Of a stretch of 64,000 nt of DNA, positions 10,665 to 52,271 are shown piece by piece (positions within the stretch are counted from its first letter, which is position 1; every line of letters begins with the position of its first letter). Source of the DNA: a virus; the IMG/VR virus record IMGVR_UViG_3300045988_136394, positions 1 through 64,000 of that record; one strand, given 5' to 3'. The translations under genes were made by a program, and so were the position numbers. The notes under the pieces were generated by a model, which did not search any database, was not told where the DNA came from, and saw nothing but the letters and a program-made list of their open reading frames with translations.

Positions 10665-10677
10665 CCTGTTTTTAGCC

Positions 10678-11039: not shown

Positions 11040-11110
11040 AGGTATTTACCCCCTTTATTTATTGTAAGTACATTATAACATATTTTTGCAGTAAATGCAA
11101 GCACTTTTAC

Positions 11111-12742: not shown

Positions 12743-12755
12743 TTTTTAAACTTTT

Positions 12756-14514: not shown

Positions 14515-14553
14515 ATTTTTGCCCCCTTTATTATTTGTTTACCTTGTAACTAC

Positions 14554-14582
14554 ATTATAAACGATTGTGATTTAAAAGTCAA
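14554..14582 (-). promoter_or_regulatory. consensus promoter TTGACT-17-TATAAT (minus strand) for 14221..14514
   Basis: Reverse complement reads TTGACTTTTAAATCACAATCGTTTATAAT. Confidence 0.55.
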
Positions 14583-14610
14583 CACTTTTTATGAAAAAAT
14601 TTTCAAAAAA

Positions 14611-14651: not shown

Positions 14652-14795
14652 CGTCTTCATAAATGGCCTGTATTAAGTTTTTTAGCGTGACCACATATAT
14701 TTATACCTATAAAGCCTAAAAACCGTTAAAACTAAAATATGAAGAAATTTAGGGTGATTGGCAAAAATGCAAAAAAAATAACCTGCAAATGCAGG

Positions 14796-22632: not shown

Positions 22633-23173
22633 ATTTCATCCTGTCCTCTATTATTTTTTGTAAATTATGCTTAATATCATATTCAAAAAATGTTCTTTTC
22701 TTTTTACCTTTAAAAACAATACAGCCACCAGGAAGATCATTTATTTTGATAGATTTTTGTTCATCTACCTCTTTTAACATATATAAAACTCTTGCAGGTA
22801 CAAATATCGTTAAATCCTCGTCGACAAACCATAACAGGATACCAGCAATAACTGAATTATAAGAACTCTTATTTTGCAGGCCATTATATTGATTATCAGT
22901 TAAATTTTTAAAATTAAAACTTTTACCATGAATAGTTTTACATTCAATATAAATCAAATAGCCATTAAAAAATACAACAAAATCACAAATATTACGAATA
23001 CCTTTATACCCGGCTGTATCATCTTTAAAACGGTCAAAACATACACCGCAATCATCAAGCTGGGAAGCGATTAAAGCTTCAAACTTTTTTCCTAATGAAA
23101 CAGGCATTTTCCTAATCCTTTCTACATTGTGAACGATATATACAGTATTGACAAATTTTAGCTTTAATACCAA
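22622..23173 (-). CDS. RecU-like Holliday-junction resolvase
   Basis: CDFVVFFNGYLIYIECKTIHGKSF resembles the RecU D...ECK catalytic region. Confidence 0.55.
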   Translation of the reverse strand: MVLKLKFVNTVYIVHNVERIRKMPVSLGKKFEALIASQLDDCGVCFDRFKDDTAGYKGIRNICDFVVFFNGYLIYIECKTIHGKSFNFKNLTDNQYNGLQNKSSYNSVIAGILLWFVDEDLTIFVPARVLYMLKEVDEQKSIKINDLPGGCIVFKGKKKRTFFEYDIKHNLQKIIEDRMKYGN

Positions 23174-23900
23174 CAGGTTTTGGCGGTACTATATTCGCAT
23201 CCACATAATCATCACAATCCTGTATTAATTGTATTAAATCTTTTTTCATTTTTTCTGTTATTTCAAGCAAATAACATTTCTTTTCGCAAGTATCCCTATT
23301 TTCATAAACGAATATAATTTTATCAAGTCCTAAAGATAAGGAATATGCAATGGCCTGTCTTTTATGGTCTTCATCTACATCATTACGAGTAACAAACTTG
23401 CGGGAAACTTCTGTCTTAAACTCTATAATGTATAACTCACCTCTATATTTAATAATACCATCGCATAAAAAACTAATATTCCAAGTTTCATTAAAAAGCT
23501 GTGTTTCAATACCTCGTTTACCTTTTACAATAATTCCGGGTAATTCTTTTTGTTCAACATATTTAGCCACATCTAAATATTCACAAGCAAAGCCATTCTT
23601 TTTCATTTCAATAACAGCATTTTGTAAATGTTCATGCCTATCAGTTCCAGACTCCCCTATACCGATAAGGGGAGCCTCTTTAATAGAACTGTCAGGTTCT
23701 TGCTCAACAATTTGATAAAACATATTACGAATACAATTCAAACTGCTGGGCTTATAATGAGCACTAGGTTTACGTTTATTACTATTTGCTGTTCTTTCAA
23801 TGGACTGCAAATAATCTTGTAAAAAAGATTGTGCTACTGGACTTTGCTTCTTTGCCTCATTTACTAAAGTAAGTAAATTTTTTAAAGAAGATTTAGCCAT
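23112..23900 (-). CDS. Cas4/RecB-like PD-(D/E)xK exonuclease with a C-terminal Cys cluster
   Basis: IIEFKT (ExK) motif plus C-terminal CQYC...C cysteines, typical of Cas4-like Fe-S nucleases. Confidence 0.5.
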   Translation of the reverse strand: MAKSSLKNLLTLVNEAKKQSPVAQSFLQDYLQSIERTANSNKRKPSAHYKPSSLNCIRNMFYQIVEQEPDSSIKEAPLIGIGESGTDRHEHLQNAVIEMKKNGFACEYLDVAKYVEQKELPGIIVKGKRGIETQLFNETWNISFLCDGIIKYRGELYIIEFKTEVSRKFVTRNDVDEDHKRQAIAYSLSLGLDKIIFVYENRDTCEKKCYLLEITEKMKKDLIQLIQDCDDYVDANIVPPKPVGIKAKICQYCIYRSQCRKD

Positions 23901-24981
23901 CGATATCCTCGTCTAAAGAAGATAAAATTTGAACGACTTTACCTTCTACCATTTTAATAGCTGTTGGTGTGCCATAGGATAAAGTGATAATATCTGTGGA
24001 TAAAGTATTTACAAGTTCTTTAAATTGAACAATGTCCAATAAGCACTCAAATTCTTTAAAATCATCACTTTCATCATATGGAATAATTTCTTCTGCTTTT
24101 GTTCTTGAAGAAATCATTTTAAGGCCTGTTTTAGTAAACAACAATTTAATAGTATTTTTATCATATTCAGATACGAAAATACTTAAACGGTCTAATGCCG
24201 CTTGCACTAAAGATTTTTTAATTGTACAAGTAGAAGGAAATTTTGTTTCTAAAAAACCATCAAGAGCTTCTACAGGATACGATTCAATATCTTCTAATTG
24301 TGTGCCTGCAATTTCAATCGTTTTGGATTTAATGATAACATCATTATCTACGAAATATACCTGTACATCTTCCTCTGTAATTAGAGTTGACAATTTCAAT
24401 AATTCGATTGGCAATAATGCAGGTCTTTTAAAAACATTTACTGAATATACGCAAAGCCTCAAGCTATCCGTGGTCATTACCCTGTCATTGAAATAATATC
24501 CAGTTATTACAGGATTTTCAATGGTTTTAGCTAAGCTTGCTGTGCAAATATCATAAACCGCCTGAAGAATTGGCTGTTTAACACGTACGGGTTTAACATC
24601 CTCAGGTATTTCTATGGAAACGTCCGGAAATTGCAATATATCCCCATTTTCGTCCAGTACAAGCTCAATATGATAATATCCATTACCTTTAAAAGTTAAA
24701 ACACCTTCCTCAATGGTAAGAATAATATGCTCACTTGTTGTTTTACTTACAAGCTTAGCAAAACTTGCAACAGGCAATACACAAGAAATATTTGGAGCTT
24801 TTACTTTATCTTTGTAAATACTTAAAAAATTAGCTCCATCTGTAGTTCTTAAACACAATACATTATCTTTTACTTCAAAACCAATATAATTCGTTAAAGG
24901 AATAAGTTTATCACAACTTGCACCTTTAACAACTCTGGATACCATATCTTTTAACTCTGATGTAATAATATCAATTTTCAT
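23893..24981 (-). CDS. DNA polymerase sliding clamp (DnaN-like beta subunit)
   Basis: 362 aa. N-terminal MKIDIIT...L...V pattern and clamp-loader context. Confidence 0.5.
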   Translation of the reverse strand: MKIDIITSELKDMVSRVVKGASCDKLIPLTNYIGFEVKDNVLCLRTTDGANFLSIYKDKVKAPNISCVLPVASFAKLVSKTTSEHIILTIEEGVLTFKGNGYYHIELVLDENGDILQFPDVSIEIPEDVKPVRVKQPILQAVYDICTASLAKTIENPVITGYYFNDRVMTTDSLRLCVYSVNVFKRPALLPIELLKLSTLITEEDVQVYFVDNDVIIKSKTIEIAGTQLEDIESYPVEALDGFLETKFPSTCTIKKSLVQAALDRLSIFVSEYDKNTIKLLFTKTGLKMISSRTKAEEIIPYDESDDFKEFECLLDIVQFKELVNTLSTDIITLSYGTPTAIKMVEGKVVQILSSLDEDIDG

Positions 24982-25559
24982 TATTTACTACTCCTTACTA
25001 AATTAATAAAAGATTGTTGTTCATCAAGATTTTCAAAAACGCCACTAGTATGCAAAGTTCTTGTAACCGCTCCTGGCTTTTTAATACCTCTTGCAGTCAT
25101 ACAAGAATGTTCTCCTTCAATCATTACAATTACATTGTCAGTCGATAAAATAGCAGACATAATACGATGAATACTAAATCCCATTCTTTCCTGAATTTGA
25201 AATCTTTTTGCAACCATATCAGCAATACGTGCCATCTTCGAAAGTCCAATTACTTTCGTTCTTGGATAATATCCAATACTTACATTCATATTATACATCA
25301 ATGCAAGATGATGTTCACAGTGACTAAAAACAGGAATATTTGTACAGGTTACAATACCGTGACCAGTTGTTTCAAAACACTTGCCAAACTTACTAACAAG
25401 ATCGGAATCAGAATAGAACTCACCCTCAAGTTGCTCTAACATCATTTTTGCAAATCTTTTAGGAGTTTCCTTTAATGAAGGATCTTGAAGATCTTTTCCA
25501 AAAGCCTGTAAAATAAGCTCTCCTGCGGATATAAGCATTTGTTCTTTAGTATTTTCCAT
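24981..25559 (-). CDS. folE: GTP cyclohydrolase I (FolE); start moved to the internal Met (MENTKEQ...) that abuts the queE stop
   Basis: HCEHH and GHG motifs of FolE. The ORF track extends to 25697 and overlaps queE. Confidence 0.75.
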   Translation of the reverse strand: MENTKEQMLISAGELILQAFGKDLQDPSLKETPKRFAKMMLEQLEGEFYSDSDLVSKFGKCFETTGHGIVTCTNIPVFSHCEHHLALMYNMNVSIGYYPRTKVIGLSKMARIADMVAKRFQIQERMGFSIHRIMSAILSTDNVIVMIEGEHSCMTARGIKKPGAVTRTLHTSGVFENLDEQQSFINLVRSSK

Positions 25560-25560
25560 T

Positions 25561-26214
25561 TTATACTCCTCTTTCATCCGGATTCCATATAATTTTATGA
25601 AGTTGAACTTGTACCATTGTATTTTCAAACATATTATCTTTAACAAATTGAACAAGTTCTTTCGGTTCAATCTGCCCATACACTGGGCTAAGAACATAGG
25701 TACAAATCAAATCCATATTATAAATTCGTTTAAATTCTTCTAAATCTTCTTTAGTAGCAACAACGAATTTCAATACATCATTATAAGTGAGCTTTTTAAG
25801 ATTACTTTCAAGCATTGAACCTAGCATACCACTACTCGGACATTTCCAATCCATTGTAACAAATACTCCGGGCAAACTACAACATGGTTCAATCGGCACA
25901 GAACCATTTGTTTCAATATTTACATGATACCCACCCCAAGATAAAGCTTCAATAAGATCGTTCATACCCGCTCTAAATAATGGTTCTCCACCTGTTAAAG
26001 TTACACGGCAACAACCAATTTTAGCAATGCTTTCAAGAATTTCCTGTAAAGACATATTTGGTTCTTGAACATCTTGTGCGTAAAGGGTATCACAATAACT
26101 ACAACATAAGTTACAGCCATTAAAGCGTACAAAAGTTGAAAGAAATCCAGTTCTAATTCCTTCACCTTCCACACTTAAAAACATTTCATTTACACTATAT
26201 ATCTTCTTGTTCAT
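25561..26214 (-). CDS. queE: 7-carboxy-7-deazaguanine synthase (QueE, radical SAM)
   Basis: CNLCCSYC (CxxxCxxC) radical-SAM cluster motif, about 217 aa. Confidence 0.75.
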   Translation of the reverse strand: MNKKIYSVNEMFLSVEGEGIRTGFLSTFVRFNGCNLCCSYCDTLYAQDVQEPNMSLQEILESIAKIGCCRVTLTGGEPLFRAGMNDLIEALSWGGYHVNIETNGSVPIEPCCSLPGVFVTMDWKCPSSGMLGSMLESNLKKLTYNDVLKFVVATKEDLEEFKRIYNMDLICTYVLSPVYGQIEPKELVQFVKDNMFENTMVQVQLHKIIWNPDERGV

Positions 26215-26533
26215 AAATTGCTAAATTCCCTTCGCTTTCTTGTACTTCTACTCTGTAACACGTTGGAATAATATCACAAATATATTTTGCAATATTTTCA
26301 GCTGTTGGATTAAAAGGAACAACTTGATTAATACTTTGATGATCGAATACATCCATTACACATTTTTTAATATGTGTAAAATCCTCAACCATGCCATAAT
26401 CCGAAAGTTCTCTAGCTTTGCAATAAATTTTAACTTTCCAATTATGACCGTGAAGATTAGCGCATTTACTCTCATAAGGCAGATTTAAATAATGAGATGC
26501 AGATATTTCTAATTCTTTGATAACTGTGTACAT
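26195..26533 (-). CDS. queD: 6-carboxy-5,6,7,8-tetrahydropterin synthase (QueD)
   Basis: CANLHGHNW (CxxxHGH) zinc motif, about 112 aa. Confidence 0.75.
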   Translation of the reverse strand: MYTVIKELEISASHYLNLPYESKCANLHGHNWKVKIYCKARELSDYGMVEDFTHIKKCVMDVFDHQSINQVVPFNPTAENIAKYICDIIPTCYRVEVQESEGNLAIYEQEDI

Positions 26534-26712
26534 TTTCTTCCTCCTGGTTTAATACGATTATGATATCTTTTTACTTTTACTTCGTGAATAAGATTTAATA
26601 ATACTTCAGCAGAAACTAATAAATTACCATTAGTATATTCATTTGCATATAAAGCAGTCTTTGCTCTTGTTTCTAGTTCTTTGATGGTTTTACCGTCTAC
26701 CATTTTTGCCAT
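26509..26712 (-). CDS. hypothetical 67-aa protein embedded in the deazaguanine operon
   Basis: ORF between queC and queD. No motif. Confidence 0.3.
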   Translation of the reverse strand: MAKMVDGKTIKELETRAKTALYANEYTNGNLLVSAEVLLNLIHEVKVKRYHNRIKPGGRKCTQLSKN

Positions 26713-26714
26713 AA

Positions 26715-27401
26715 TTAACCTCGCAAAGCTGGATCTTTTACACCATTAACTTCAAAAGCATGAGCTCTATCTCTACATGTACCACATACTCCACAAGGTT
26801 TTTCTCCACCCTCATAACAAGACCATGTAAATTTATAAGGGACTTTCAATGACAATCCAGCTTTAACAACTTCGCCTTTATTAAACATAATCAAAGGAGC
26901 TCTTAATGTAAGTTGGCCGCCAGTACCTTCTAAAATTGCTTTACGCATGGCATCCACAAATTCAGGAGTACAGTCCGGATATGCCCTACCAGCCGCATCA
27001 TCTGCATGAGCGCCATACCACACTTCACAGCCCCCGAGGGAATAAGCCAAAGACGCCGCTGAAGATAACATTAAGCCGTTACGAAATGGTACATAGGTAC
27101 TAACAGTCCCTTCACCACCTAATTCCTTTAATTGTTCGGCATAGGTAGTATGTTTAATTTCATTTTTACTATTTTTTAATAAACAGCAATCACTCAATTC
27201 CATAATACTACTAATATCCCGAACAATATGTTGAACACCATAATGTTCCGCTAACTTTTTAGCACAAGCTAATTCTTTCTCATGCTTTTGGCCGTAGTAA
27301 ATAGATAACGCTGTTACCTCTTTATTGCCATAACAATCAACTGCCATACCTAAACAAGTAGCGCTATCAACACCACCGCTCAACAATACAACTGCTTTCA
27401 A
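26715..27401 (-). CDS. queC: 7-cyano-7-deazaguanine synthase (QueC)
   Basis: SGGVDS PP-loop and C-terminal CGVCGTCRDR zinc motif. Confidence 0.85.
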   Translation of the reverse strand: MKAVVLLSGGVDSATCLGMAVDCYGNKEVTALSIYYGQKHEKELACAKKLAEHYGVQHIVRDISSIMELSDCCLLKNSKNEIKHTTYAEQLKELGGEGTVSTYVPFRNGLMLSSAASLAYSLGGCEVWYGAHADDAAGRAYPDCTPEFVDAMRKAILEGTGGQLTLRAPLIMFNKGEVVKAGLSLKVPYKFTWSCYEGGEKPCGVCGTCRDRAHAFEVNGVKDPALRG

Positions 27402-28321
27402 AATAATCGCCTCCTAATAATTTTTCCACCATGATAAGTATATTCTTTTGCCCAATCCATCAAAAATGTTACATTCCACAAATCGCGCTGAACATAATCT
27501 TCCATTAACTGCTCAAAATCGAAATTCTTGCTTTTAATGTAAGATTTTAAATCTTCCAAAGCTACAGCACTACCATTTAAAGGGTGAGCCATTTTATCCT
27601 TTTGCTGAGCACTAATAATAATAGTACCCCATGGAGTATAAATTGCTCCATTATGCCCGCTTTGAATCCACGAAGAACTATCCGCAGAAGTAACTGGATA
27701 TTGGACTAAAGTTTTTCTTACAGTCATTCCAAAAGCATGGACTTTAACATTGGGATTACTCGAACTTTTTATAATATCAAAACATAACGATAAAAAGTTC
27801 TTTTGTACATCTTTAGGCTTGCCCACCATACCACCAAGAGCGATATATTTTAATGGTTGGCCATTTTCATCTCGCCATTCTAAGGCTCTACGCAAACACC
27901 ATATCGGTTCACCCACATGGAACGTATATAGTAAGCCATCCTTATTTAAAACAGCATCCCTCATATACAAATAATTTTTCCATGTTTTTACAGCTGCATC
28001 TAATACTTGTGCTTGTGTAGGCTTTTGCCTGATGTTTCCTGGAATACAGTCCAATTGACCAAATAAATCAATATACTGCACTCTGTCGTTTAAAAAGTAA
28101 ACATAATCATCAACATTAATATATGTACCTTTAGTCCATGCAGTAAAAGCACCACTGTCAATAAATAGTTTACCTTTTCGACCGTATTGATTAATCCAGC
28201 CAATCCATCTATCAATATTTTTCCTTTCGTTCAAATAACTGAATAGATGATTGGCTCCCATATCGAACAAGCACTTATCTACATGATCTGTAACTTGTCC
28301 CGCAAAATATAAATCTAACAT
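27398..28321 (-). CDS. dpdA: DpdA-like tRNA-guanine-transglycosylase-family protein (putative 7-deazaguanine DNA transglycosylase)
   Basis: ALGGMVGK resembles the TGT AIGGL(A/S)VGE motif. Operon context with folE, queD, queE and queC. Confidence 0.55.
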   Translation of the reverse strand: MLDLYFAGQVTDHVDKCLFDMGANHLFSYLNERKNIDRWIGWINQYGRKGKLFIDSGAFTAWTKGTYINVDDYVYFLNDRVQYIDLFGQLDCIPGNIRQKPTQAQVLDAAVKTWKNYLYMRDAVLNKDGLLYTFHVGEPIWCLRRALEWRDENGQPLKYIALGGMVGKPKDVQKNFLSLCFDIIKSSSNPNVKVHAFGMTVRKTLVQYPVTSADSSSWIQSGHNGAIYTPWGTIIISAQQKDKMAHPLNGSAVALEDLKSYIKSKNFDFEQLMEDYVQRDLWNVTFLMDWAKEYTYHGGKIIRRRLF

Positions 28322-28422: not shown

Positions 28423-30705
28423 TTATTCGTTTTCATACCAACACTTTGTGATTTCAACATCACATTTTAAAGGCACAGAGAGTGAGGCTGCATTTATCAT
28501 ACATTCAGAAAGTAATTCAGCACATCTTATTTTATTCTCCTCTGGACATTCCCCAATAATTTCATCATGTACCTGAATAAGTAGTCGGAAGCCAAGCTGT
28601 TTTAACTCTTCACAACGACTAATAGATAACATGGCGAATTTTGTTAGGTCAGCCGCACTTCCTTGTACCCTAGCATTTACACACATACGAGTTGCATCAG
28701 CAATTTTCATCCGATTATCAACTACCTTTATACCCTCGTTATTCGCCTCTTCAATTACGGCTTGATGTTGCTTAAAGCTCTTACATCCAGCTAATTTATT
28801 CCAATAATATGTTACGATTTCTTCAGGTACTTCAGTATTTTGATCTTCATCATCGGCAAGTGGGTCATAGTCTTTCGACACACCATCTTTCCAATAAAAT
28901 TCGTAGGTGTCTAATTGCATATCAGGAAGTCTTCTTTTTCTTCCCCATGCAGTAGTTACATAACCTAGATCTCTTGCCATTTGCCGACTCTCTTCTCTAA
29001 ATGTTTTTAATTTAGGAAAAGCGTTTAAAACTGCATCGTATATTTCCTGAGCTAATTTTTTAGAAATATGTAAATCATCTGCAATAGCCGGGATTCCTTT
29101 ATCATAGTTAATACCTAAAAGAATAGCCTTTGCTCGACTACGTCTTTCCTTTCCTTCAGGATTGTGTGTGCCATCGGGTCTAAATTCCAAACAGTCATCA
29201 TACGGAACATTGAAAGCTAATGAAGCGATTTCGGCGTACAAATCTTTTCCATCGATATAAGCCTGAATACCTTTTTCGTCCTGCGCTAAATGCACAGTCA
29301 ATCGAGGTTCCTGAGCTGAGTAATCGCAGGATAACATTACATAGCCGTCACTAGCCTTGAACATTTTTCGTATGTCTTTTGCATGGCTTGGAATATTTTG
29401 CAAATTAGGGTCATCACTCGAGAAACGACCTGTAATTGTTCCAAGTTGATTAAATCTCGCATGAATCCTCCCTGTTTTTGCATTTATAATTTTTGGGAAT
29501 TTATCTACATATGTAGATACTAATTTTGAAGCCTTACGAAATTTCAATAAGGCCGTTACCAATGGATTATCAAACTGCTCAAGAATTTCTTCTCCTGTGC
29601 CACGAGGTTTCTTCTTGCTTACTGGAGGCAGTTTCATAATATCATACAACAGGATAGATAGTTGCTCTGGACTGGCTGGATTAATCTTCTCAGGCAGTTT
29701 ACAAGAAGAACCTTGTTTGATTCTATATTCTTCGATTTCAGATTCATAGAGTGAAAGAGTTTCTTCGAACTCTACCGCAGCTTCACTCATAAGCTTGTTA
29801 TACTTTTCAGATAACTTTTGCTGAACCTCTAAATCAAGAAATACTCCTGTATCTTCCATTTCAGAAACGATTGGAACCAATGGCATTTCTAATTCATGGA
29901 ATATTTTAGCAACATCTTGCAACTCATACTCTCTGCATACTTCAGTATCGGTTAAAAACGGACGTTGAAATTCGGCTAATTCATATGTAATCATAGGGTC
30001 ATTAGCCGCATATAAATACGCAACATCAACAGGAATCATTGTAAACGGAATACCCGCAAACAACTCTGAAAATGTATGCGATTTATCCTTGCCTTTATTA
30101 ACGTACTTATCCCATAAACCCTTTAAACTATTATTTTTATTATTTTCATCGAGCAGTCGTTGTGCAATATAGCCATCCCACCAACAAAACATTTTAATGC
30201 CTAAAGTATGTTTTAATACCCTACAGTCAAAATCGCTATTAAACATATCAATTTTCACTTTTGCATCTATTAAACGCTGTAATTCACGTTTAACAATTTC
30301 AGCTGAAATTTGCCCTTTAATCGGCATACCTGTCATATAACTAACATGATTTACAGGTACATAAGCAGCTTTATATCCTGGAGTATATAAACAAACACCT
30401 GCTAAAGTTGTAGTGATGGGATCTAAACTTGTTGTTTCTGTATCGATTGCCCCAATACCATTTTCAATAAATTTATCAATTAAATCTATTAAAATAGCTT
30501 CGTCCATAACATTTAAGTACATATCTTTTTTATCAGCAAAATACCTATTTGTCATGGCTTTAATTGAAGTAATTCGACTAGATAAATTACCTGCCTTCAA
30601 CTTTACGTTTCCGGCAGATAATATAGGTAATTTTGATTTAGCTTTATTGACAACTTGTGCATCCGTTATTTTTGATGAACGAGGTTTAAAATCAAATAGA
30701 GCCAT
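28423..30705 (-). CDS. family-A DNA polymerase (PolA-like) with a 3'-5' exonuclease domain
   Basis: Exo I motif AIDTETTSL. Motif A LSCDYSAQEPRL, motif B RRSRAKAILLGINYDKG, motif C QVHDEII. Confidence 0.9.
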   Translation of the reverse strand: MALFDFKPRSSKITDAQVVNKAKSKLPILSAGNVKLKAGNLSSRITSIKAMTNRYFADKKDMYLNVMDEAILIDLIDKFIENGIGAIDTETTSLDPITTTLAGVCLYTPGYKAAYVPVNHVSYMTGMPIKGQISAEIVKRELQRLIDAKVKIDMFNSDFDCRVLKHTLGIKMFCWWDGYIAQRLLDENNKNNSLKGLWDKYVNKGKDKSHTFSELFAGIPFTMIPVDVAYLYAANDPMITYELAEFQRPFLTDTEVCREYELQDVAKIFHELEMPLVPIVSEMEDTGVFLDLEVQQKLSEKYNKLMSEAAVEFEETLSLYESEIEEYRIKQGSSCKLPEKINPASPEQLSILLYDIMKLPPVSKKKPRGTGEEILEQFDNPLVTALLKFRKASKLVSTYVDKFPKIINAKTGRIHARFNQLGTITGRFSSDDPNLQNIPSHAKDIRKMFKASDGYVMLSCDYSAQEPRLTVHLAQDEKGIQAYIDGKDLYAEIASLAFNVPYDDCLEFRPDGTHNPEGKERRSRAKAILLGINYDKGIPAIADDLHISKKLAQEIYDAVLNAFPKLKTFREESRQMARDLGYVTTAWGRKRRLPDMQLDTYEFYWKDGVSKDYDPLADDEDQNTEVPEEIVTYYWNKLAGCKSFKQHQAVIEEANNEGIKVVDNRMKIADATRMCVNARVQGSAADLTKFAMLSISRCEELKQLGFRLLIQVHDEIIGECPEENKIRCAELLSECMINAASLSVPLKCDVEITKCWYENE

Positions 30706-31361
30706 TAGAAGCTTTCTCTACGATTACGTCGAGCTTTAGGTTCTGCAGGTGTACGTCTTTTAACCCCTTCATCTGTGGCAGGATTTCTTCTTTGGGATTG
30801 TTCTTCCAATCCTGGCATTTTACCAGTATCTAAAAATTCATCCAATTCTTCGGCTGTTTTATTTAATAAGAATGTTTCCGGAACTTCTGGAACTTCTGGA
30901 AAATCTTCCAATGTTTTATCGTCACCTTTTATTGGAAACAAAAGATATTCAGTAGTTTGTTCTCCTTTTGCTCCATTACGTTCAATTTCAATTGATTGTG
31001 AGCATAAAGGATTATAACGCGCACATAAACTTGTGAGCTTATCGATAAACTTTTTACCACGTTCCCATAATTTAACAGAACCATCATCTTCTATATATAA
31101 TGGAACAAAAACCCGTAATTGAATTTTATTTCCAGAAGCACATAACGGACAAACTTCTATAGAATCATTAATCTGTCTTAGGCATTCAACCCATTTATCT
31201 CGGCCATTAATTTTGACACGATGAAGTGAATGAGCTTCAATATCGTCAACATTATTATACAAAATTCTTACTGTAGCAACATCGCGATCTTCTTTAAGTT
31301 GAAAAAAATTAGTTGTACTTGTAGTATATTGGTCTACTTCATCATATCGAACTCGTGCCAT
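30705..31361 (-). CDS. putative gp32-like single-stranded-DNA-binding protein (zinc-binding)
   Basis: H-x12-C-x10-C-x2-C spacing (LHRVKINGRDKWVEC...CPLC) matches the T4 gp32 zinc-site architecture. Confidence 0.45.
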   Translation of the reverse strand: MARVRYDEVDQYTTSTTNFFQLKEDRDVATVRILYNNVDDIEAHSLHRVKINGRDKWVECLRQINDSIEVCPLCASGNKIQLRVFVPLYIEDDGSVKLWERGKKFIDKLTSLCARYNPLCSQSIEIERNGAKGEQTTEYLLFPIKGDDKTLEDFPEVPEVPETFLLNKTAEELDEFLDTGKMPGLEEQSQRRNPATDEGVKRRTPAEPKARRNRRESF

Positions 31362-32273: not shown

Positions 32274-32325
32274 AATACTACCACACTTTCTAAATAAATT
32301 TTGTAAGGTTTTCACCTTCAATTAC

Positions 32326-32354
32326 ATTATACCCTTCGTAAATTCAAAAGTCAA
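32326..32354 (-). promoter_or_regulatory. consensus promoter TTGACT-17-TATAAT (minus strand)
   Basis: Reverse complement reads TTGACTTTTGAATTTACGAAGGGTATAAT. Confidence 0.55.
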
Positions 32355-33361
32355 TACTTTTTGGATAAAAAAATTTCAGGGCAATTTTTAAATTCCTGCT
32401 CAGATAAATCATTAATATCTTTACCTCTTGGAACTACTAAAGATTTAACCAATTTATTATCAATAACTTTAATTAATCTCTTAGCGCCTTTATCTCCAGC
32501 TTCATCTCCATCAAAAGCGGCTACTATTTTTCTAAAAGGAAGTTTTTTAATTAAATTAAATTGTTCTGGCGTGCCTGTACCTAATAATGCTATAGCAGCT
32601 ACACCATATTTAACAGCCGTTATAGCATTTATTATACTCTCACACACATATAATGTATCTTGACTATAATCCAATTCATACACACCATATAATGGTTTAA
32701 ACACGTTTTCCGGATAATGGTAAAGCTTGAAATGTATTGCCCTTCGTGCAATAAACAGAGTTCTGCCCTGCATATCCCTCACAGGGAATGTTATGCAGGG
32801 AAAGGTATTTTCATTTTTCTTTAACTTAAATTTAGGGTCATAACCAATATCGTATTTTTCAATAAGTTCTTCAGTAAGACCTCGTTTAAACATATAATCA
32901 TGATAATAACGATATCTATCTAATTGTTTTTCCGGAACATATTGTTGTTCTGAATGATTACTATTTCTACTCAATTTTAAATCTAAAGGTTTTCTATCTT
33001 CTATATCTATAGATAAAAAATTCTTTATTAGCCACTTTGTACCATATGCACCCGAATCATCATATCCATAAATATAACTAATCATTTCAGGTAGTGTTGC
33101 AGTATAGCCACATGTAAAACAATGTACAGTCCCGGCTGGAATTTTTTTACCATTTATTATTTTATCAACTCTTGATATACCACAAGAAGGCCTTTTTTCT
33201 TGCCCATTATTATGCACCGGACAACAAATTTGTATATTTGAATCTGTTACTATAAACCGACCAAACAAACTAATACCTAATTGTTCTTCTATCTGTGATT
33301 GTAAAAATTGCAAAATAGAAACATCGTCTTCTAATAAAGCTTTGCCCCGAATTGTAAACAT
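32351..33361 (-). CDS. DnaG-type DNA primase
   Basis: Zinc finger CCPVH...CGI and CFTCG. TOPRIM aspartates AAFDGDEAGDKG. Confidence 0.75.
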   Translation of the reverse strand: MFTIRGKALLEDDVSILQFLQSQIEEQLGISLFGRFIVTDSNIQICCPVHNNGQEKRPSCGISRVDKIINGKKIPAGTVHCFTCGYTATLPEMISYIYGYDDSGAYGTKWLIKNFLSIDIEDRKPLDLKLSRNSNHSEQQYVPEKQLDRYRYYHDYMFKRGLTEELIEKYDIGYDPKFKLKKNENTFPCITFPVRDMQGRTLFIARRAIHFKLYHYPENVFKPLYGVYELDYSQDTLYVCESIINAITAVKYGVAAIALLGTGTPEQFNLIKKLPFRKIVAAFDGDEAGDKGAKRLIKVIDNKLVKSLVVPRGKDINDLSEQEFKNCPEIFLSKKY

Positions 33362-45477: not shown

Positions 45478-47796
45478 TTAGCTAACCCCTATTGCAAATA
45501 TATAACAATCGCCCCAGTTTTGAATATCATCGTTATAGCCATTGTTGGTATTAAATGTAATGCTTGTATTAGACCTTGCTATAATATAAGGCACTAAGTT
45601 GGAGCTACACATTACATTTGAATAATAGCAAGTGGTAAAAGTGCGTGGAAATGTAAGTGTTCCACTGATGATATTACTTCTATTTACATATTCCCATTGT
45701 ACAGTTAAACCTGTACTGTTTTCTCTTGCCCAACCATTAGTACCTTTGGAGATTGTCCATGAACTATCTCCTGCTAATGCACTTATAGCTTGTTTAACTC
45801 TTAAAGGGGACATAAACTTTGTGTTATTAGTACCAGCCTCGGCTTCCGCTTCACTGGCAATAACAGGTTTGGGTATATCAATAGTTACATTACCATTTGT
45901 CGGTTTTATTCCATTAACACTTTTAACTACACTATTACTTAAATTAGTTAAGTCAGATTGTTTAGCTATTTGAGTCCAAGAAGGATTAGTATTATTAGTA
46001 ACATGGTAATGAGTGACATACATTGTTTGATTCGTGCCTGTAAAATGAAATATAGTAATATCTCCTGTAAGTCGAGTAGCTATAAAGTTACCATAACTTG
46101 CAGGATATATATCCGCAAAATTTTGTGCTTCAGAAGCATAATACTCCAATACACTGTTTATTGGTAATGCGGAGTGAATAGAAGCGAATGTTTCTTCCCC
46201 TGGAGTTATTCCGATTTGTTCTAAAGAAGTATATGTTGTTAAATTAGAACCACTTCCTGCATCACAGTTAATGGTAATATCTTGCGTGCCGTCAAAAGCC
46301 ACACCATTTATTGTGCGTGCGGTTTGTAACTTTGTTGCTGTATTAGCATTACCTAACCATTTTGCAACACCATCATGTGTGACCGTTGCAAAGGGATTAT
46401 TATTGCTAGAAAAAGTTACTTTTGTATTATCGTCACGTATGACAAACACATTATTATTCGTTCCAACTCTAAATACATGAGGTTGATTTGTGCTTGTGTG
46501 ATAAAATAATCCACCTAAATTATCCGTCCCAATTCTTGCTTGTACTGTTTCATTTGTTGGAGGAATACCAAAATTTATACTACCACTGCTACCTGCCGCA
46601 CTGCCATTTGATACTTTAATGTTTGCTCTGAAAGTATTTAAAGCTGTAAAGGTATTTGCTTGATTTAATAAGCCTACTTCATCAGTACAAGCAATTTCTC
46701 GCCATGCAGTCCAACTACTATTTTCATGGTAAAAACAGCGTTGATACGTTCTTGAAGCTACATAACTACTCCCATAAGTTCGATAAATCTGGACTAAACT
46801 TGTTCTAGGGGCATTAAATCCAATCAATACACTTAATACACCGCCCCTTGGCGTTGCATCATTATAGCTAGTGGGGAGATTTGCTATTGTGTTTGCTTCT
46901 GTATTGCTTTGTACTTGATATTCTCCAGGAGTTTTGTAATCATTAAAATCGCTATTTGAAGGGATAAAATTCGTTATGTTTAAATATTTAGCCGAATTTA
47001 CATCTCCGTTAGCTATACTATCATCTACATATTTTTTGTTCGGCACATCATTATTTACTGTAGGAGTTTTGTGTACTGTCAGTTCCAGCCCATTTGCATT
47101 AGTATATTTACCCCACGGAGTATTATTTAACGAGCTAAATTCTACTGTGCCATCAGAATTATACACGCTAGCAAAGGATGTTTGAATACCGCTTTGTAAA
47201 AAACAATGTCTATAATCAGCGGCACGCATTATTAATTCGCCTGTTTTATTTCTGACTATACTAGGTGTTTGTTCACTACCTTCAGGTTTTAGTCCGAGCC
47301 ATAAATAAGTTGATGCATCACCAGGAGTGGTAGCACTGCCCCGTATGTTTAAATTTGCATTAAATATAGCACTACCATTCCAATAGTTATTGCCTGTCCA
47401 TGTGTTATTGCCTGCTAATTTGCCATAGGTCGTATGAATATTATTGCCATTAATATCAGCTAATGCTTTTGTTGCTGTACCCGCTGCATATTCTTGAAAT
47501 GCGTCCATTGTGCCTAATTTAGTATCATCTACGACTTGATATTGTACTGGAGGAGTAACTCCTATTATCATTACAGTATCGCCATTTTGAACATCATCAA
47601 CAGTTAAAGCAAGCATATCTGTAACAGTATCAACCTTTATAACATTATCCAAGCCTGCTGGAGGAATATTAGAAATATCTAATTGTCCTTTTATACGAGT
47701 GGCATCAATATCACTGGTATTTACATAATCAATTAAACTATTTATATATTTGATAAATGCCAGTCCGGATAATGTTTTCGTTATTTTCTCAAACAT
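45478..47796 (-). CDS. large tail fibre / receptor-binding protein (772 aa)
   Basis: Size, Gly/Asn/Thr-rich beta-repeat composition and position after the baseplate genes. Confidence 0.55.
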   Translation of the reverse strand: MFEKITKTLSGLAFIKYINSLIDYVNTSDIDATRIKGQLDISNIPPAGLDNVIKVDTVTDMLALTVDDVQNGDTVMIIGVTPPVQYQVVDDTKLGTMDAFQEYAAGTATKALADINGNNIHTTYGKLAGNNTWTGNNYWNGSAIFNANLNIRGSATTPGDASTYLWLGLKPEGSEQTPSIVRNKTGELIMRAADYRHCFLQSGIQTSFASVYNSDGTVEFSSLNNTPWGKYTNANGLELTVHKTPTVNNDVPNKKYVDDSIANGDVNSAKYLNITNFIPSNSDFNDYKTPGEYQVQSNTEANTIANLPTSYNDATPRGGVLSVLIGFNAPRTSLVQIYRTYGSSYVASRTYQRCFYHENSSWTAWREIACTDEVGLLNQANTFTALNTFRANIKVSNGSAAGSSGSINFGIPPTNETVQARIGTDNLGGLFYHTSTNQPHVFRVGTNNNVFVIRDDNTKVTFSSNNNPFATVTHDGVAKWLGNANTATKLQTARTINGVAFDGTQDITINCDAGSGSNLTTYTSLEQIGITPGEETFASIHSALPINSVLEYYASEAQNFADIYPASYGNFIATRLTGDITIFHFTGTNQTMYVTHYHVTNNTNPSWTQIAKQSDLTNLSNSVVKSVNGIKPTNGNVTIDIPKPVIASEAEAEAGTNNTKFMSPLRVKQAISALAGDSSWTISKGTNGWARENSTGLTVQWEYVNRSNIISGTLTFPRTFTTCYYSNVMCSSNLVPYIIARSNTSITFNTNNGYNDDIQNWGDCYIFAIGVS

Positions 47797-48976
47797 TTTC
47801 AGTAACTCCTTCCACTAAATCATAAATACATAATCTACCTGCAAAAGGATAAATTGCTCTTAATGTAACTGATTTATCAGTCATAGTATTAAATTCCATA
47901 TCCACGAAAGGCACTCTAATATATTGATTATTAGCTTCGTCCTTCATTTGAATATTTAAAATTGCTTTACCACTTGTATCAATTTCGATTGTATATGTAT
48001 CCCCATCAGCGACCCATAAATCTTCCGAAATCTCATCTGTAAATTCGAGGTAACTTGCAGCCTGATGAAATTTTTCATACCATTCCTGAATTTGCAAATA
48101 TTGCATATTTACATTTTCAGCTTTATTCGTAAGATCTTTTTCAATTTCTTGAATATTTTCATGTCTTGTTTGAATATCGGCATAAATGGTATCAATTTGT
48201 TCTTTTGCTTCTGTTACAATCTCTTGATTAGCCTGCGCTCTATCTGCATCTAATTTAGCGGATTCTGCACTTTCTGCGGCATTGGATTCTGAATTAGCGG
48301 CATTTAATTCAGATTGTTTAGCATTTTGTGAATATATTTTAGATTCACCAGCATAACGTCCAGCTTCTGTTTCTGACTTACTAGCCGCCTCTGCAGAAGT
48401 TTTAGCCGCTTCTGCATATTGATAAGCTGTATTTGTTGATTCCTGAACTTGATGAAGTAAATCTTCTATATCTGATTTAACATCTTTAACATTTTGATAA
48501 ATTACATCAATTTGGTTTTTAATATTTTGGGAGGCTTCTTGTGCCTTTTTAGCTTCATCAGCCGCTTTAACAGCTTTATCTGCATTTTCCTGAACTTGTT
48601 GAACATATTGTTCAAATATATCTGGAGTAGGATCTTCAGGAAGTAGACTATCCTCATTAAACCCACTATCAATAATTTCTATATCGATTTCATTAGTTGT
48701 TGCTCTTTTGTTATCCATAGATACGGCAAAAGCATTTACCTGCATTATTCCTGCACCAACTAAAACTTCCCACGGTACTGGATATTCTACGCCATCTGAA
48801 ATGTTGGTTACATTGTAAGTTTTTCCATTCTTGGTAAATTGTACTGTCTTACCTACATAATTAGCCCAATCTTCAGAGGTTTCAAGTGTAAATGTTAAAT
48901 AACCCTTACTATCTGCAACAACTTCAGAATCTCCATAATAACTCAATCTTTGTTTAAATATTCTAAATTTTATCAT
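47789..48976 (-). CDS. tail structural protein with a long coiled coil (395 aa)
   Basis: Ala/Glu/Gln-rich heptad region. The 37-bp inverted repeat lies directly upstream of its start. Confidence 0.45.
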   Translation of the reverse strand: MIKFRIFKQRLSYYGDSEVVADSKGYLTFTLETSEDWANYVGKTVQFTKNGKTYNVTNISDGVEYPVPWEVLVGAGIMQVNAFAVSMDNKRATTNEIDIEIIDSGFNEDSLLPEDPTPDIFEQYVQQVQENADKAVKAADEAKKAQEASQNIKNQIDVIYQNVKDVKSDIEDLLHQVQESTNTAYQYAEAAKTSAEAASKSETEAGRYAGESKIYSQNAKQSELNAANSESNAAESAESAKLDADRAQANQEIVTEAKEQIDTIYADIQTRHENIQEIEKDLTNKAENVNMQYLQIQEWYEKFHQAASYLEFTDEISEDLWVADGDTYTIEIDTSGKAILNIQMKDEANNQYIRVPFVDMEFNTMTDKSVTLRAIYPFAGRLCIYDLVEGVTENV

Positions 48977-48981
48977 TTTTA

Positions 48982-49278
48982 ATTCCTTTCTTTAAAGATC
49001 AGAATAAGCTCCATAACCATACGGCTAATATAAATACTACTCCAGCGCAAGGTTCTTTCCGTACTTGGAAGTTTGATCCAGTAGCTTCCGGAGTGTTTTC
49101 ATCTACCTATTTAGGACGATGGGCAAATAGCAAAAATGGCGGAGATGATGCCATGTGGCAAGTTAACTTTAATTTAGCAAATACATTAAATAATATTACT
49201 ATTGGAAATTCTGGAGAATCTGAAGGATTTCCAAAACACGTTATAATGCCTTATTACCTGAGAGTTTTAAATATTTAA
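48982..49278 (+). other. silent alternative tail-fibre C-terminal cassette (no start or RBS; homologous to the last roughly 95 aa of 49267..50205)
   Basis: Translation ...NTTPAQGSFRTWKFDPVASGVFSS...FPKHVIMPYYLRVLNI aligns with ...NKTGTTQLRGTFIAGN...TGVFSG...YPKHIIMPYYLRILNI of the fibre gene. Confidence 0.6.
48985..49021. repeat. left copy of the 37-bp perfect inverted repeat (CTTTCTTTAAAGATCAGAATAAGCTCCATAACCATAA)
   Basis: Exact reverse-complement match to 49550-49586. Confidence 0.85.
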
Positions 49279-50205
49279 TATTCTTAAATAATATGGCATA
49301 ATTATATGCTTTGGATAAGCTTCTTCTCCACCTGTATTCACGCCTGTAGATTCAATTTTAATATCATGATTATGGTCGCCATTAAATTGTATAACTTCAC
49401 GAGTATCACTTTTATGAGCACATTCGCCAGCCCATGTACCAGTTCCGGAAAATACGCCAGTTGTTCGACCCCAACTGCCTCCAACCTGATTTCCTGCAAT
49501 GAAAGTTCCTCGAAGTTGTGTAGTTCCAGTCTTATTTCCAGTGGCCAAATTATGGTTATGGAGCTTATTCTGATCTTTAAAGAAAGAACCAGCATTTTCT
49601 CCACCACGACCAAAATCTAATATAAATGGAGTTCTAAAAGTTGTACTGTCATCACCAGTTGAAAAATAGCCAACAGAAGTTTTATTTAATGTTAACATTT
49701 TTTGCCATTCAACTTCAGAAGTTAAAGGATAATATTTTTGAACAAAATCCCACAATTCTGGATATTCTGATCTATTTAATACATGACTTTGTGTCATTTT
49801 TAAGTATCCTGGAGGAGCGCTATTCCATAATTGCTGTTTAATCGTTCCTATTGGTGTAGTATCTGCAGATACTTGAATTGGTTGTTCTTCCCAAATAATA
49901 TCATTATCTGTTATCGTTCTGGAACCTTCTTGTCCACTTGCTTCCGACCATGTTGGTTCATTACTTCCACTTGTACCAGCATTTTTAGATACTAATTTAG
50001 TATGCAATCCAAAAGGATAAAGTAATACAGAATTTTTAGGATATGCTGTATTCGGTTGCCAAGAAAATCTTTTTAAAAATTCTGCATGCTGTTGCAATGT
50101 ATTTTCCCAACCATTAATATTTTTAGCCATTACAATGTCGTTATCTGTGTCATGCCATAAATGAGCGATGTAATCAGTAATTTTCATAACAATATTATTA
50201 GCCAT
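49267..50205 (-). CDS. tail fibre protein with a switchable C-terminal domain
   Basis: 313 aa from the ATG overlapping the upstream stop. The C-terminal roughly 95 aa is homologous to the opposite-strand cassette. The right inverted repeat lies in-frame within codons FFKDQNKLHNHN. Confidence 0.55.
   Translation of the reverse strand: MANNIVMKITDYIAHLWHDTDNDIVMAKNINGWENTLQQHAEFLKRFSWQPNTAYPKNSVLLYPFGLHTKLVSKNAGTSGSNEPTWSEASGQEGSRTITDNDIIWEEQPIQVSADTTPIGTIKQQLWNSAPPGYLKMTQSHVLNRSEYPELWDFVQKYYPLTSEVEWQKMLTLNKTSVGYFSTGDDSTTFRTPFILDFGRGGENAGSFFKDQNKLHNHNLATGNKTGTTQLRGTFIAGNQVGGSWGRTTGVFSGTGTWAGECAHKSDTREVIQFNGDHNHDIKIESTGVNTGGEEAYPKHIIMPYYLRILNI
49550..49586. repeat. right copy of the 37-bp perfect inverted repeat (inside the tail fibre gene)
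   Basis: Exact reverse complement of 48985-49021. Confidence 0.85.
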
Positions 50206-51115
50206 TTGTTCCAACCTCCCGAATATTAATTCGATGTTCAATCATAGTATCTAAAGCAATAGGAATATAAACAGGATCATTAGAAAGAATTAAATCTTTC
50301 CCATCTAAAAATTTAATATTAGTGATTAATTTTATTTCTTCCCAATTTTCAATATTATATTGGATTCTTAAATACCCACCAGTAATAATTTTTTGAACAA
50401 AATTTGTTATCTTATAAGTATCATTTATAAGAACTGCCTGTATTTCTTCCCCTGTAAATGTTTTTAATTTATTAAGCATTAATGGAGTCAAGGATTGCAC
50501 CTCCTCAGATTTTAATTTTGCTAATTCTTGAACACTTATAATAGGTTTTTGACCTACTTTCCATTTACCACCTAAAATATAATTCCACCACCATTTTTGT
50601 TGATAAATTTCTTCGCCAACTTCAATCGTATTTGGAATAAATGGAACATTGATAAATACAATGTTTGCAGGTTTTATTTTATTTATAGTAGCAATACTTT
50701 CCTTATAAATAAAAGAATTAGAAGCATTACTTTTAATGTATAAGGTATAATTCGGATAATCCATTTCTATTTCATAATTATTTTTTCCAAATAAAGAGTC
50801 TAATTTTTGACGAAGATAAATCATTGTATAATAGGATAATGTTTGTATCCTATTTAATAATCTAAATCTTCTTTCCTCCAATGTTTCTGTTTCCGGATCT
50901 GCAACTATTTGGAATAATTGTTCATAAGCATAAATACCATCTTCATCTGCGTATGCAATAAATTGATTATTTTTTGCTTTATTTAATAACAAGTATAAGT
51001 TATTCCAAATATCATTTTCAACTTTAATTAATTCATCTGTTTCTAAAATACCTTCATAATAACGAGGAAAATAACGACCAATTCTAGTTCTGTATAAACC
51101 ATACCTATTGTTCAT
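50198..51115 (-). CDS. XkdU/YmfQ-like tail protein (DUF2313-like)
   Basis: Position after the baseplate J-like gene, 305 aa, N-terminal RYFPRYY...LE.DE motif flavour. Confidence 0.4.
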   Translation of the reverse strand: MNNRYGLYRTRIGRYFPRYYEGILETDELIKVENDIWNNLYLLLNKAKNNQFIAYADEDGIYAYEQLFQIVADPETETLEERRFRLLNRIQTLSYYTMIYLRQKLDSLFGKNNYEIEMDYPNYTLYIKSNASNSFIYKESIATINKIKPANIVFINVPFIPNTIEVGEEIYQQKWWWNYILGGKWKVGQKPIISVQELAKLKSEEVQSLTPLMLNKLKTFTGEEIQAVLINDTYKITNFVQKIITGGYLRIQYNIENWEEIKLITNIKFLDGKDLILSNDPVYIPIALDTMIEHRINIREVGTNG

Positions 51116-52271
51116 CTAGACTCACCGTACCTAATACAGGAATTTCTTGTAATGAACTTGTTTCTGTTAATTTAATATCTGTGTCTGTTTCATTTAATTT
51201 TAATTCATAGGCACTAGATACACCTTTAACATTTAGAATAGCAAAATTAATTCTACCTAAATAAACAGTTACAGAATAATTATTTTCATCGTCACTATTT
51301 TCCCAAGCTTCTCTTAAAGACAAAAGATAATTTTCTAAAGCAGCTTTAATATCAGGCATCAAAGTTTCTAATTTATATCCTGGCAATAAAGTGATTTTTC
51401 CAGACACATTAATTGTTCTAGGTAATGGAGTGCTTACTGTTACTTTATGCCCAATGGGAGCAATACCTAACCCTAAACCAGTTTCCCCGCCAGAATTTTC
51501 CGGATCGAATTTTTCTAAAATAGTTTGACAAAATTCTGAAGAACAAGAATTGTAATCTGTATCAATAATACTTAACTTTACAGTTCCTCCGCCTGCCCAT
51601 ACAGGATAAACTTGAACGCCACCAATGCCCGGAATTTCTTTAGCCCATTGCCGATACTGTGCAATATTACCACCAAACGCTGTTTTCATTAAATTAGCTA
51701 AAAATCTTTCTCTTAGAGAATCATCTGATTCTTCTTCTTCTCCCGGATAAAGTAAAGTAGTAATTTCAGCACTTGCCAACTTTTCAATATAATCATTAGG
51801 AACGATTCTACCTATATAACTATTTCCCACGCTACCAACAGTATTGCATTGCATAACATAACTTCCGGGTACTACATCACCATCTTCATTTGCGTATACC
51901 TGTACTGCGGTATAATTTAAGATAGTATCTCCAACGGTTGAAAAAGATTGTCCAATAGAAATTTGACAAGGTTCATCCAGCTGTGTTTTAAATACTCCTA
52001 ATTTTTTAGCGTATGTTGCGGGATCTCGAGTTATACCCCCCTCTATTACACGCCCATCAAGCCATAATCCATTTGCAGTTTCGATATATGTTTGTTCGAT
52101 AATATCAGCTAAATATAATATGTGTTTTGCGGCTTCATAACAACATGGTGATAAAGCATCCCGAATAATCGAACCTTCTCGTTTATCAACATTATCTGGA
52201 ACTTTGCTTAATGCTTCCGTTAAAATATACTCATAGGTATACTTTTGCAGGTATTCACTTAAAACATTCAT
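51105..52271 (-). CDS. baseplate J-like protein (XkdT-like)
   Basis: 388 aa. Composition and synteny match baseplate J. Confidence 0.55.
   Translation of the reverse strand: MNVLSEYLQKYTYEYILTEALSKVPDNVDKREGSIIRDALSPCCYEAAKHILYLADIIEQTYIETANGLWLDGRVIEGGITRDPATYAKKLGVFKTQLDEPCQISIGQSFSTVGDTILNYTAVQVYANEDGDVVPGSYVMQCNTVGSVGNSYIGRIVPNDYIEKLASAEITTLLYPGEEEESDDSLRERFLANLMKTAFGGNIAQYRQWAKEIPGIGGVQVYPVWAGGGTVKLSIIDTDYNSCSSEFCQTILEKFDPENSGGETGLGLGIAPIGHKVTVSTPLPRTINVSGKITLLPGYKLETLMPDIKAALENYLLSLREAWENSDDENNYSVTVYLGRINFAILNVKGVSSAYELKLNETDTDIKLTETSSLQEIPVLGTVSLDEQ

Follow-up and report, generated by a model that had tools for sequence, protein, structure and literature searches.

Evidence for a DNA-inversion switch of the tail-fibre tip in a group of human-gut phages

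The stretch of DNA analysed here, referred to throughout as the window, comprises positions 1 to 64,000 of the virus record IMGVR_UViG_3300045988_136394 (IMG/VR) and carries on its minus strand a gene for a tail-fibre or receptor-binding protein whose 3′ end lies within a segment bounded by inverted repeats (Table 1). The gene encodes a constant N-terminal part followed by a C-terminal tip (tip 1), and a second, silent tip cassette (tip 2) faces it on the plus strand. The start codon of the fibre gene, an ATG at position 50205, agrees with the gene calls in relatives; the mechanical list of open reading frames (ORFs) extends the frame to a TTG at 50241. The protein matches tail and tail-fibre families in PHROG and the collar-like repeats of the L-shaped tail fibre of phage T5 (8hqz, E=3.5e-13), and its only protein matches in cultured phages are distant ones to P2-like Burkholderia tail fibres (28% identity). 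Neither the fibre nor the silent cassette matched any Pfam family, the Collar domain included.

A reading of this DNA from its letters alone (the sequence-only reading) had placed a 37-bp perfect inverted repeat at 48985-49021 and 49550-49586, around two alternative C-termini of the fibre. The perfect repeat stands, but its length and coordinates were off by one: it measures 36 nt (CTTTCTTTAAAGATCAGAATAAGCTCCATAACCATA; 48986-49021 on the plus strand, reverse complement at 49551-49586, with 529 nt between the arms), and the base immediately beyond each of its ends is mismatched between the copies. It is the longest perfect inverted repeat of the 64 kb and the single pair of at least 20 nt at the fibre locus, and none of 100 shuffles of the window gave a match (0/100). 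Translation confirmed that the right copy lies in frame within the fibre gene, where the ORF contains GSFFKDQNKLHNHN and reads ...GRGGENAGSFFKDQNKLHNHNLATG... across the repeat. The left copy opens a plus-strand frame at 48982-49278, which begins IPFFKDQNKLHNHTANIN and reads IPFFKDQNKLHNHTANINTTPAQ...PKHVIMPYYLRVLNI-stop; neither a start codon nor a ribosome-binding site (RBS) was found for this frame, no start codon lying ahead of the repeat, just as had been proposed. The repeat of the window also contains a 10-bp palindrome, TCTTTAAAGA.

The two cassettes converge and encode homologous tips, with 43% identity across 67 aa (E=3e-14), and inspection of the sequence bore out that the cassettes overlap tail to tail across a perfect palindrome through which both read LNI-stop, an arrangement also present in other lineages. 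Together they occupy the whole of the 529 bp between the repeats, with no U/U′-type assembly genes inside. Outside the repeats the cassettes have diverged at the DNA level, their identity falling to 25-50% between the end of the repeat and the C-terminal end. All 12 codons of the repeat are identical between the copies, whereas in the equally conserved C-terminal peptide, where 13/15 residues are the same, only 7/15 codons are; the identity of the repeats is therefore not explained by conservation of the protein.

Table 1. Positions of the fibre switch, of the genes next to it and of other genes in the window that bear on its interpretation.
Feature	Position	Strand	Details
Tail-fibre / receptor-binding protein gene (constant part and tip 1)	49267-50205	-	312 aa from ATG
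Constant N-terminal fibre part	49587-50205	-	Outside the segment; collinear in all relatives in either orientation
Right repeat copy	49551-49586	-	In-frame within the fibre gene; codons S-FFKDQNKLHNH
Expressed cassette of the window (tip 1)	49267-49550	-	NLATGNKTG...PKHIIMPYYLRILNI-stop
Perfect palindrome TTAAATATTTAA	49267-49278	.	Site of stop-codon overlap; LNI-stop in either cassette
Silent cassette of the window (tip 2)	49022-49278	+	TANINTTPAQ...PKHVIMPYYLRVLNI-stop; in frame with the left repeat; without its own start codon or promoter
Left repeat copy	48986-49021	+	5′ edge of the silent cassette; outer end overlaps the RBS of the downstream gene
Invertible segment	48986-49586	.	601 bp with both repeats, 529 bp without
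Downstream fibre-module gene	47789-48976	-	395 aa, coiled-coil, tail-fibre-like; RBS AAAGGAA 48983-48989 at the left repeat
RecA-like recombinase	20404-21558	-	Pfam RecA 8.5e-30, RecA_C 6e-7
RecU-like Holliday-junction resolvase	22622-23173	-	Pfam RecU 1.8e-7
Cas4-like exonuclease	23112-23900	-	phrog_1706 5e-42, Cas4-domain exonuclease
Single-stranded DNA-binding protein (SSB)	30705-31361		
Rad52-like	4888-5814	+	
7-deazaguanine gene set	24981-28321		GTP cyclohydrolase I 24981-25697; QueE-like radical-SAM 25561-26214; QueC 26715-27401; queuine tRNA-ribosyltransferase-like 27398-28321

The orientation of the segment was compared between the window and 24 related contigs from human-gut metagenomes and viromes, which fall into four lineages. 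A search of IMG/VR and of a metagenome collection with the core of the repeat gave 14 loci, mostly contigs named as human gut and 89-100% identical to the window, and each locus was compared with the window in three separate parts, namely left flank, segment and right flank. Within the window's own lineage (lineage 1, repeat of 36 nt), six genomes carry the segment oriented as in the window (the window itself, L003, L010, L012, L047 and L048) and nine carry it inverted with respect to both flanks (L001, L002, L004, L005, L006, L008, L011, L013 and L014); in every case the breakpoints of the inversion are exactly the ends of the repeats. Contigs of opposite orientation can be nearly identical: L006 (inverted) and L012 (not inverted) share 99.6% identity in the left flank, 99.4% in the segment and 99.8% in the right flank, and the pairs L002/L010 and L003/L008 are likewise near-identical and opposite. 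The segment nearest to an inverted one is non-inverted, with 99.4% identity here and 98.1% in another clade. Orientation is thus independent of the relatedness of either the segment or the flanks.

The layout might in principle be an inert inverted duplication that an earlier rearrangement left behind, or else the two orientations might be a product of assembly, as de Bruijn assemblers working with k-mers shorter than a short inverted repeat can be misled by it. However, contigs assembled with MEGAHIT at k=141, and SPAdes NODE contigs, cross the 34-36-nt repeats in both orientations (e.g. L054 against L056); opposite orientations at k=141 mean that reads span the 34-nt repeat, and they are not an artefact of assembly. 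The constant part is common to both forms of the protein, and each fusion is present in public data as hundreds of independent gene calls (426 sequences in the tip-1 cluster P0001 and 661 in the tip-2 cluster P0003), both forms sitting on contigs of 63-68 kb. The fusion of the constant part to tip 2 is found in P0003, in P0005 and in the contigs of the inverted orientation. Nor do the silent cassettes resemble inert remnants: they are intact and in frame in every relative, without a frameshift or a stop codon (L008 has an in-frame deletion of 12 nt), and the repeats have been kept against synonymous drift. We regard the absence of a switch as effectively refuted, with a probability close to nil.

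Some contigs end at the repeats themselves. The 64,185-nt contig IMGVR_UViG_3300045988_115771 (L060:1-35, L062:14681-14715) has both of its termini precisely at the inner borders of the repeats and corresponds to the genome minus the segment, which is the outcome expected of a graph assembler when both orientations are present and hints that this was so in that sample. Since this contig amounts to the whole genome without the segment, the genome length is put at ~64.7 kb. L009 likewise terminates exactly at the inner end of one repeat. Two further apparent breaks at the repeat, in L007 and L014, were rejected, as their ends are the Nextera adapter CTGTCTCTTATACACATCT; positions 1-11 of L007 and the last ~47 nt of L014 (~5356-5402) are untrimmed adapter fused to phage sequence in or near the repeat.

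Both orientations recur in three further lineages, which were defined by protein searches together with look-ups of genome context and in which the repeat itself differs. Lineage 2, whose constant part is 78% identical to that of the window at the amino acid level, has a repeat of 34-35 nt (CTTTCTTTAAAGACCAAAATAAACTCCATAACCA) with three synonymous differences from the window repeat, each present in both copies; four contigs carry the segment one way (L054, L055, L063 and L064) and two the other (L056 and L061). Lineage 3 (constant part ~65% identical in amino acids) has a 29-nt repeat (CATTGGTAAATATTATAATGACCAAAATA) placed ~12 nt further upstream; of its two cassettes one resembles tip 1 and the other, quite dissimilar to it, is tip-3-like, L057 and L065 being opposite in orientation; a search of IMG/VR with this repeat gave 0 matches, and the flipped form was retrieved through proteins. 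In lineage 4 the repeat is 41 nt long (TGTCTACACCGCTGACCAGAATAAGAAACATAACCATAACG) and the two orientations are those of L070 and L071, and L071 differs from L070 by one C>T change that is found in both of its copies of the repeat. The sole DNA common to all four repeats is GAYCARAATA, which provides the codons for DQN-K.

Relatives that lack a silent cassette (L052, L053, L058, L066 and L069) have the next gene directly after the fibre, and in one of them, L066, the stretch corresponding to the repeat shows drift at five sites; four of the changes are synonymous, and the fifth replaces Asn with Asp. Within lineage 1, one or two mismatches between repeats occur in L047 (6656-6691, 7221-7256) and L048 (6656-6691), and mismatch is also found in L001 (1666-1701); such changes give K>N or L>P, and L047 and L048 are both in the orientation of the window. 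Partial locking of the switch, or errors in sequencing, may lie behind these mismatches.

The two orientations could instead be old, stable alleles that co-infecting phages exchange by recombination in the flanks, intramolecular inversion being rare or having ended. The genomes are indeed mosaic, and the left flank of the window is 89-95% identical to relatives with which its right flank shares 99-100%. Against such an exchange, segment sequences are not split by orientation, the nearest neighbours being opposite in the two comparisons given above (99.4% and 98.1%), both states occur in each of four lineages whose repeats differ, intact silent cassettes and perfect repeats require continuing selection for switching, and contigs break exactly at the repeats. 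Old alleles are accordingly a very unlikely source of the two orientations. The data support a DNA-inversion switch of the tail-fibre tip, present in nature in both orientations in four lineages: as the sequence-only reading had anticipated, a constant N-terminal part is joined to either of two C-termini, relatives carry both orientations with breakpoints at the repeats and the two cassettes alternate among them, with neither a single fixed orientation nor a degenerate second cassette being seen and all silent cassettes intact.

Pfam and PHROG scans of 60 window ORFs, which include all non-structural ORFs of at least 150 aa, revealed no site-specific recombinase (Resolvase, Phage_integrase or other), in agreement with the earlier statement that no invertase gene is visible in the 64 kb. 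In L017, a relative with 98.8% identity, the packaging region (1404-9898) links window position 64000 to approximately window position 7863 and closes a genome of ~64.7 kb; of the ORFs upstream of the portal gene in that region, the five largest likewise include no site-specific recombinase, and in eight relatives precomputed Pfam matches show no such gene within 10 kb of the switch. Crossover sites of the gix/hix/cix type span 26 bp around an AAACC NN GGTTT core, and no match to a gix/hix-like site (AAACCNNGGTTT) with at most one mismatch was found anywhere in the window. In serine-invertase switches a Fis-dependent recombinational enhancer lies inside the invertase gene, of which this phage showed none, and Fis is not expected in a Firmicute host. 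The window does encode general recombination proteins (Table 1), of which the RecA-like protein, the RecU-like resolvase and the Cas4-like exonuclease may take part in a homology-driven inversion. Pfam RecA matched the RecA-like protein in two separate stretches, and a separate P-loop match covers residues 36-74; the core of this protein may be interrupted or divergent.

According to the model that we favour, the constant N-terminal part would attach to the baseplate and be followed by a tip of ~100 codons. Recombination between the two copies of the repeat would flip the 601-bp segment and thereby join the constant part, in frame, to the other tip, while the RBS of the downstream gene would stay unaffected. 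The flip would be driven by homology over the identical patch of 29-41 bp, without a dedicated site-specific invertase, and gene conversion would keep the two copies identical. Candidate catalysts are the RecA-like, RecU-like, exonuclease and SSB proteins of the phage, the RecA of the host, or RecA-independent template switching. The two tips would presumably confer different receptor or host specificities, a form of bet-hedging. We favour homology-driven inversion because the repeats differ between lineages in sequence, length and position yet stay perfect, and because their copies change together; at 29-41 nt, they also lie just above the minimal pairing length of RecA-type recombination, which is ~25 bp. 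Taking the reality of the switch and its homology-driven nature as one claim, we put it at somewhat better than an even chance.

The same switch might instead be flipped in trans by a site-specific invertase acting on a core of approximately GAYCARAATAA, whether a master invertase of the host or an unrecognised protein of the phage; the sequence-only reading had likewise placed the recombinase elsewhere or in the host. Host master invertases are known, namely Mpi in Bacteroides and RecV in Clostridioides, and several phage ORFs match no family, those without a Pfam or PHROG match including 22108-22632, 11157-11672 and 6099-6767. Some programmed inversions without a nearby recombinase gene have been described (PMC9881135). 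The 10-nt core shared by the four repeats and the 10-bp palindrome TCTTTAAAGA in the repeat of the window could be seen as traces of a recognition site. However, the common core is fully accounted for by the conserved codons for DQN-K, the palindrome is missing from the repeats of lineages 3 and 4, and there is no gix/hix-like AAACC-NN-GGTTT core in the window. Repeat length (29-41 nt), boundaries and sequence all vary by lineage, yet all four flip, and a site-specific enzyme has no need of extended perfect identity and, without gene conversion, cannot carry a change in one copy over to its partner. A virulent phage would, moreover, leave a slow host invertase little time in each infection. 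Judged by how the repeats vary between lineages, homology-driven inversion is at least as well indicated as an invertase encoded elsewhere or by the host, and we hold an invertase in trans to be doubtful, though far from negligible.

Several points weigh against homology-driven inversion. Patches of 29-41 bp are near the lower limit for RecA-type recombination, and rates of inversion might be low. Every characterised phage tail-fibre inversion system of which we know uses a dedicated invertase, as is well established, and this counts equally in favour of an invertase in trans. Paired changes in the two repeats occur in invertase systems too, which makes them suggestive and not decisive, and a host invertase acting in trans, or a phage protein without a Pfam or PHROG match, is a possible catalyst. 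The mismatches in the repeats of L047 and L048 show that their perfection is not absolute, and mixed orientation within one population is deduced from contig breaks and from near-identical contigs of different samples.

Lineage 4 (P0122-P0161; L066, L069, L070 and L071) adds a further aspect, as its members carry a dozen or more unrelated types of tip, each of 70-120 aa, on one near-invariant constant part. All of these tips diverge right after ...YTADQNKxHxH and end in ...MPYFLRALNI, and many contain repeated HxH motifs. This suggests frequent exchange of tip cassettes at the same two conserved joints that serve inversion. A broader proposal, to which we assign a little less than an even chance, is that this abundant gut phage family switches its fibre without a dedicated invertase, by general recombination during replication through its RecA-like, RecU-like and exonuclease functions, with a patch of at least 29 bp, little longer than the minimum for homologous pairing, conserved by gene conversion and with the joints capturing new tips. 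The variety of tips on a single constant part, a dozen types or more, would then follow, because the junction and the palindromic LNI-stop end would act as capture joints.

Host-range switching by inversion is textbook knowledge for phages Mu and P1. The G segment of Mu (Gin), the C segment of P1 and P7 (Cin), the P element of e14 (Pin) and the Min system of p15B likewise invert between repeats, joining a constant N-terminal fibre part to alternative C-termini with alternative host range, and in Mu G and P1 C the repeat lies within the coding sequence at the junction of constant and variable parts, as it does here. The repeat of Mu G, at 34 bp, is also close in length to the 36 bp of this phage. 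In contrast, Mu G and P1 C have an adjacent serine invertase, none being found in the examined genome of this phage, and a gix/cix-type site, whereas this phage has none and the sequence of its repeat is not conserved among its own relatives. Their segments of 3-4 kb carry U/U′ assembly genes, while that of ~0.6 kb described here consists only of two tail-to-tail tips with overlapping stop codons; they also belong to temperate enterobacterial phages, and this phage is apparently virulent and of Firmicute type. The shufflon of R64 (pilV, Rci) similarly switches the C-terminus of an adhesin by inverting promoterless cassettes, but it comprises multiple segments with 19-bp sfx repeats and an rci tyrosine recombinase, whereas the present locus is a single two-cassette segment without sfx sites or an rci-like gene. 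The likeness to Mu G, P1 C and shufflons drawn by the sequence-only reading therefore stands for function and fails for family membership, in view of the recombinase gene, the type of site and the internal chaperone genes that this phage lacks.

The closest general class is that of gene-altering programmed inversions, surveyed in bacterial genomes including prophages (Milman et al, 2023; PMC9881135), in which tail-fibre genes are enriched among the targets and recombinase genes are enriched beside them. This phage agrees with the working definition of the class: its repeats overlap a coding sequence, inversion gives another allele that stays in frame, and closely related genomes carry opposite orientations irrespective of phylogeny. 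The class usually has a nearby recombinase gene, with exceptions noted in that survey, and none was found here. A 2026 paper (PMC13501310) presents its own candidates as putative invertons, none having been reported before in metagenome-assembled viral genomes of the gut. In cyanophages of Anabaena, an invertible segment of ~30 kb lies between inverted repeats of 400-700 bp, and inversion without a dedicated recombinase has been considered (bioRxiv 10.64898/2026.02.14.705889). The two isomers coexist there, and, as in this phage group, orientation does not follow phylogeny and the repeats are not conserved among relatives. However, the cyanophage repeats are more than 10 times longer and flip a 30-kb block of genes, whereas here a patch of 29-41 bp flips a 0.6-kb intragenic pair of cassettes and rewrites one protein.

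Diversity-generating retroelements serve the same purpose, variation of the fibre tip, by a different mechanism, mutagenic retrohoming. Such a retroelement, acting on a neighbouring fibre gene and consisting of an mtd-like target protein with an mtd_2nd domain (534-608 aa) and then an RVT_1 reverse transcriptase, lies two genes downstream of the switchable fibre in several relatives (L054:12886-16107, L066:9861-12969, L069:9828-12897 and L052:8755-10581). Lineage-2 genomes such as L054 thus hold an inversion switch and a retroelement in one fibre module. No reverse transcriptase was found among the window ORFs scanned, and the place of the retroelement is taken by a second fibre-like gene (45478-47796, 772 aa) with a weak gp53-like match at its C-terminus.

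The fibre gene directly follows a Mu gp48-like gene (50198-51115) and Baseplate_J (51105-52271), and YQBQ, DUF2577, DUF2001, Phage_TAC_5 and sheath domains are encoded upstream in relatives. To judge from these domains the tail module is contractile and PBSX-like, as had been read from the letters alone. The gene downstream of the switch has the same expression signals in both orientations of the segment, because its RBS adjoins the outer end of the left repeat. A scan of 48500-50500 for promoters and terminators gave nothing beyond the expectation from shuffling, with no terminator between the fibre gene and the downstream gene.

Elsewhere the window encodes a replication and modification module comprising PolA, DnaB, a primase, a clamp loader, a sliding clamp, an SNF2 helicase, SSB, the RecA-like and RecU-like proteins and the Cas4-like exonuclease. 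The set of 7-deazaguanine genes suggests modified DNA, by analogy with Streptococcus phage Dp-1. By PolA the nearest cultured relatives are Clostridium phage phiCTP1 and Streptococcus phage Dp-1 (~46% identity), an affinity that suggests a Firmicute host. Among 50,697 cultured-phage records nothing matched positions 47500-51200 at the DNA level, even at blastn sensitivity; in 185,579 representative bacterial genomes the core of the repeat had 0 matches and the fibre profile 0 confirmed relatives, and the phage was not seen as a prophage. It is an uncultured phage of the human gut and looks virulent, since no integrase was found and no relative is present in the representative bacterial genomes.

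Three other features of the window were recorded. Positions 1-7862 have a GC content of 0.37-0.40, compared with ~0.30-0.33, and are collinear with L024, which belongs to another phage group with a terminase of its own. L017 instead joins window position 7863 straight to the dUTPase/terminase region; this block, which holds the Rad52-like gene on the plus strand, represents an accessory module of mosaic origin or else a join made during assembly. Direct repeats of 43 nt occur in four copies (11066-11108, 12703-12745, 14548-14590 and 32320-32362) and read TTGACT...TATAAT on the minus (coding) strand, like a strong sigma-70 promoter; they probably mark early and middle phage promoters. Finally, an inverted repeat of 27 nt with 93% complementarity (10645-10671 / 14763-14789) has its copies 4.1 kb apart, each resembling a terminator hairpin, and one of them follows the only plus-strand ORF of that region (10260-10625).

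To our knowledge, switching by inversion has hardly been documented in the uncultured phages that predominate in the human gut, and never in a phage without an invertase gene. The locus described here is new in having no invertase gene, a minimal tail-to-tail design of two tips and repeats that are lineage-specific yet perfect, and in belonging to abundant, uncultured and apparently virulent gut phages, some of which have in addition a retroelement directed at an adjacent fibre. This group has been seen in many hundreds of assemblies, and the switch can be checked directly in public assemblies. If inversion is homology-driven, a reversible, programmed change of a protein would need only ~30 bp of inverted identity and general recombination, and searches for invertons that demand a nearby recombinase gene would miss such switches. 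The same arrangement would offer a minimal design for engineered phages with switchable receptor-binding tips, and assemblies and host-range predictions for such phages would capture only one of their two states.

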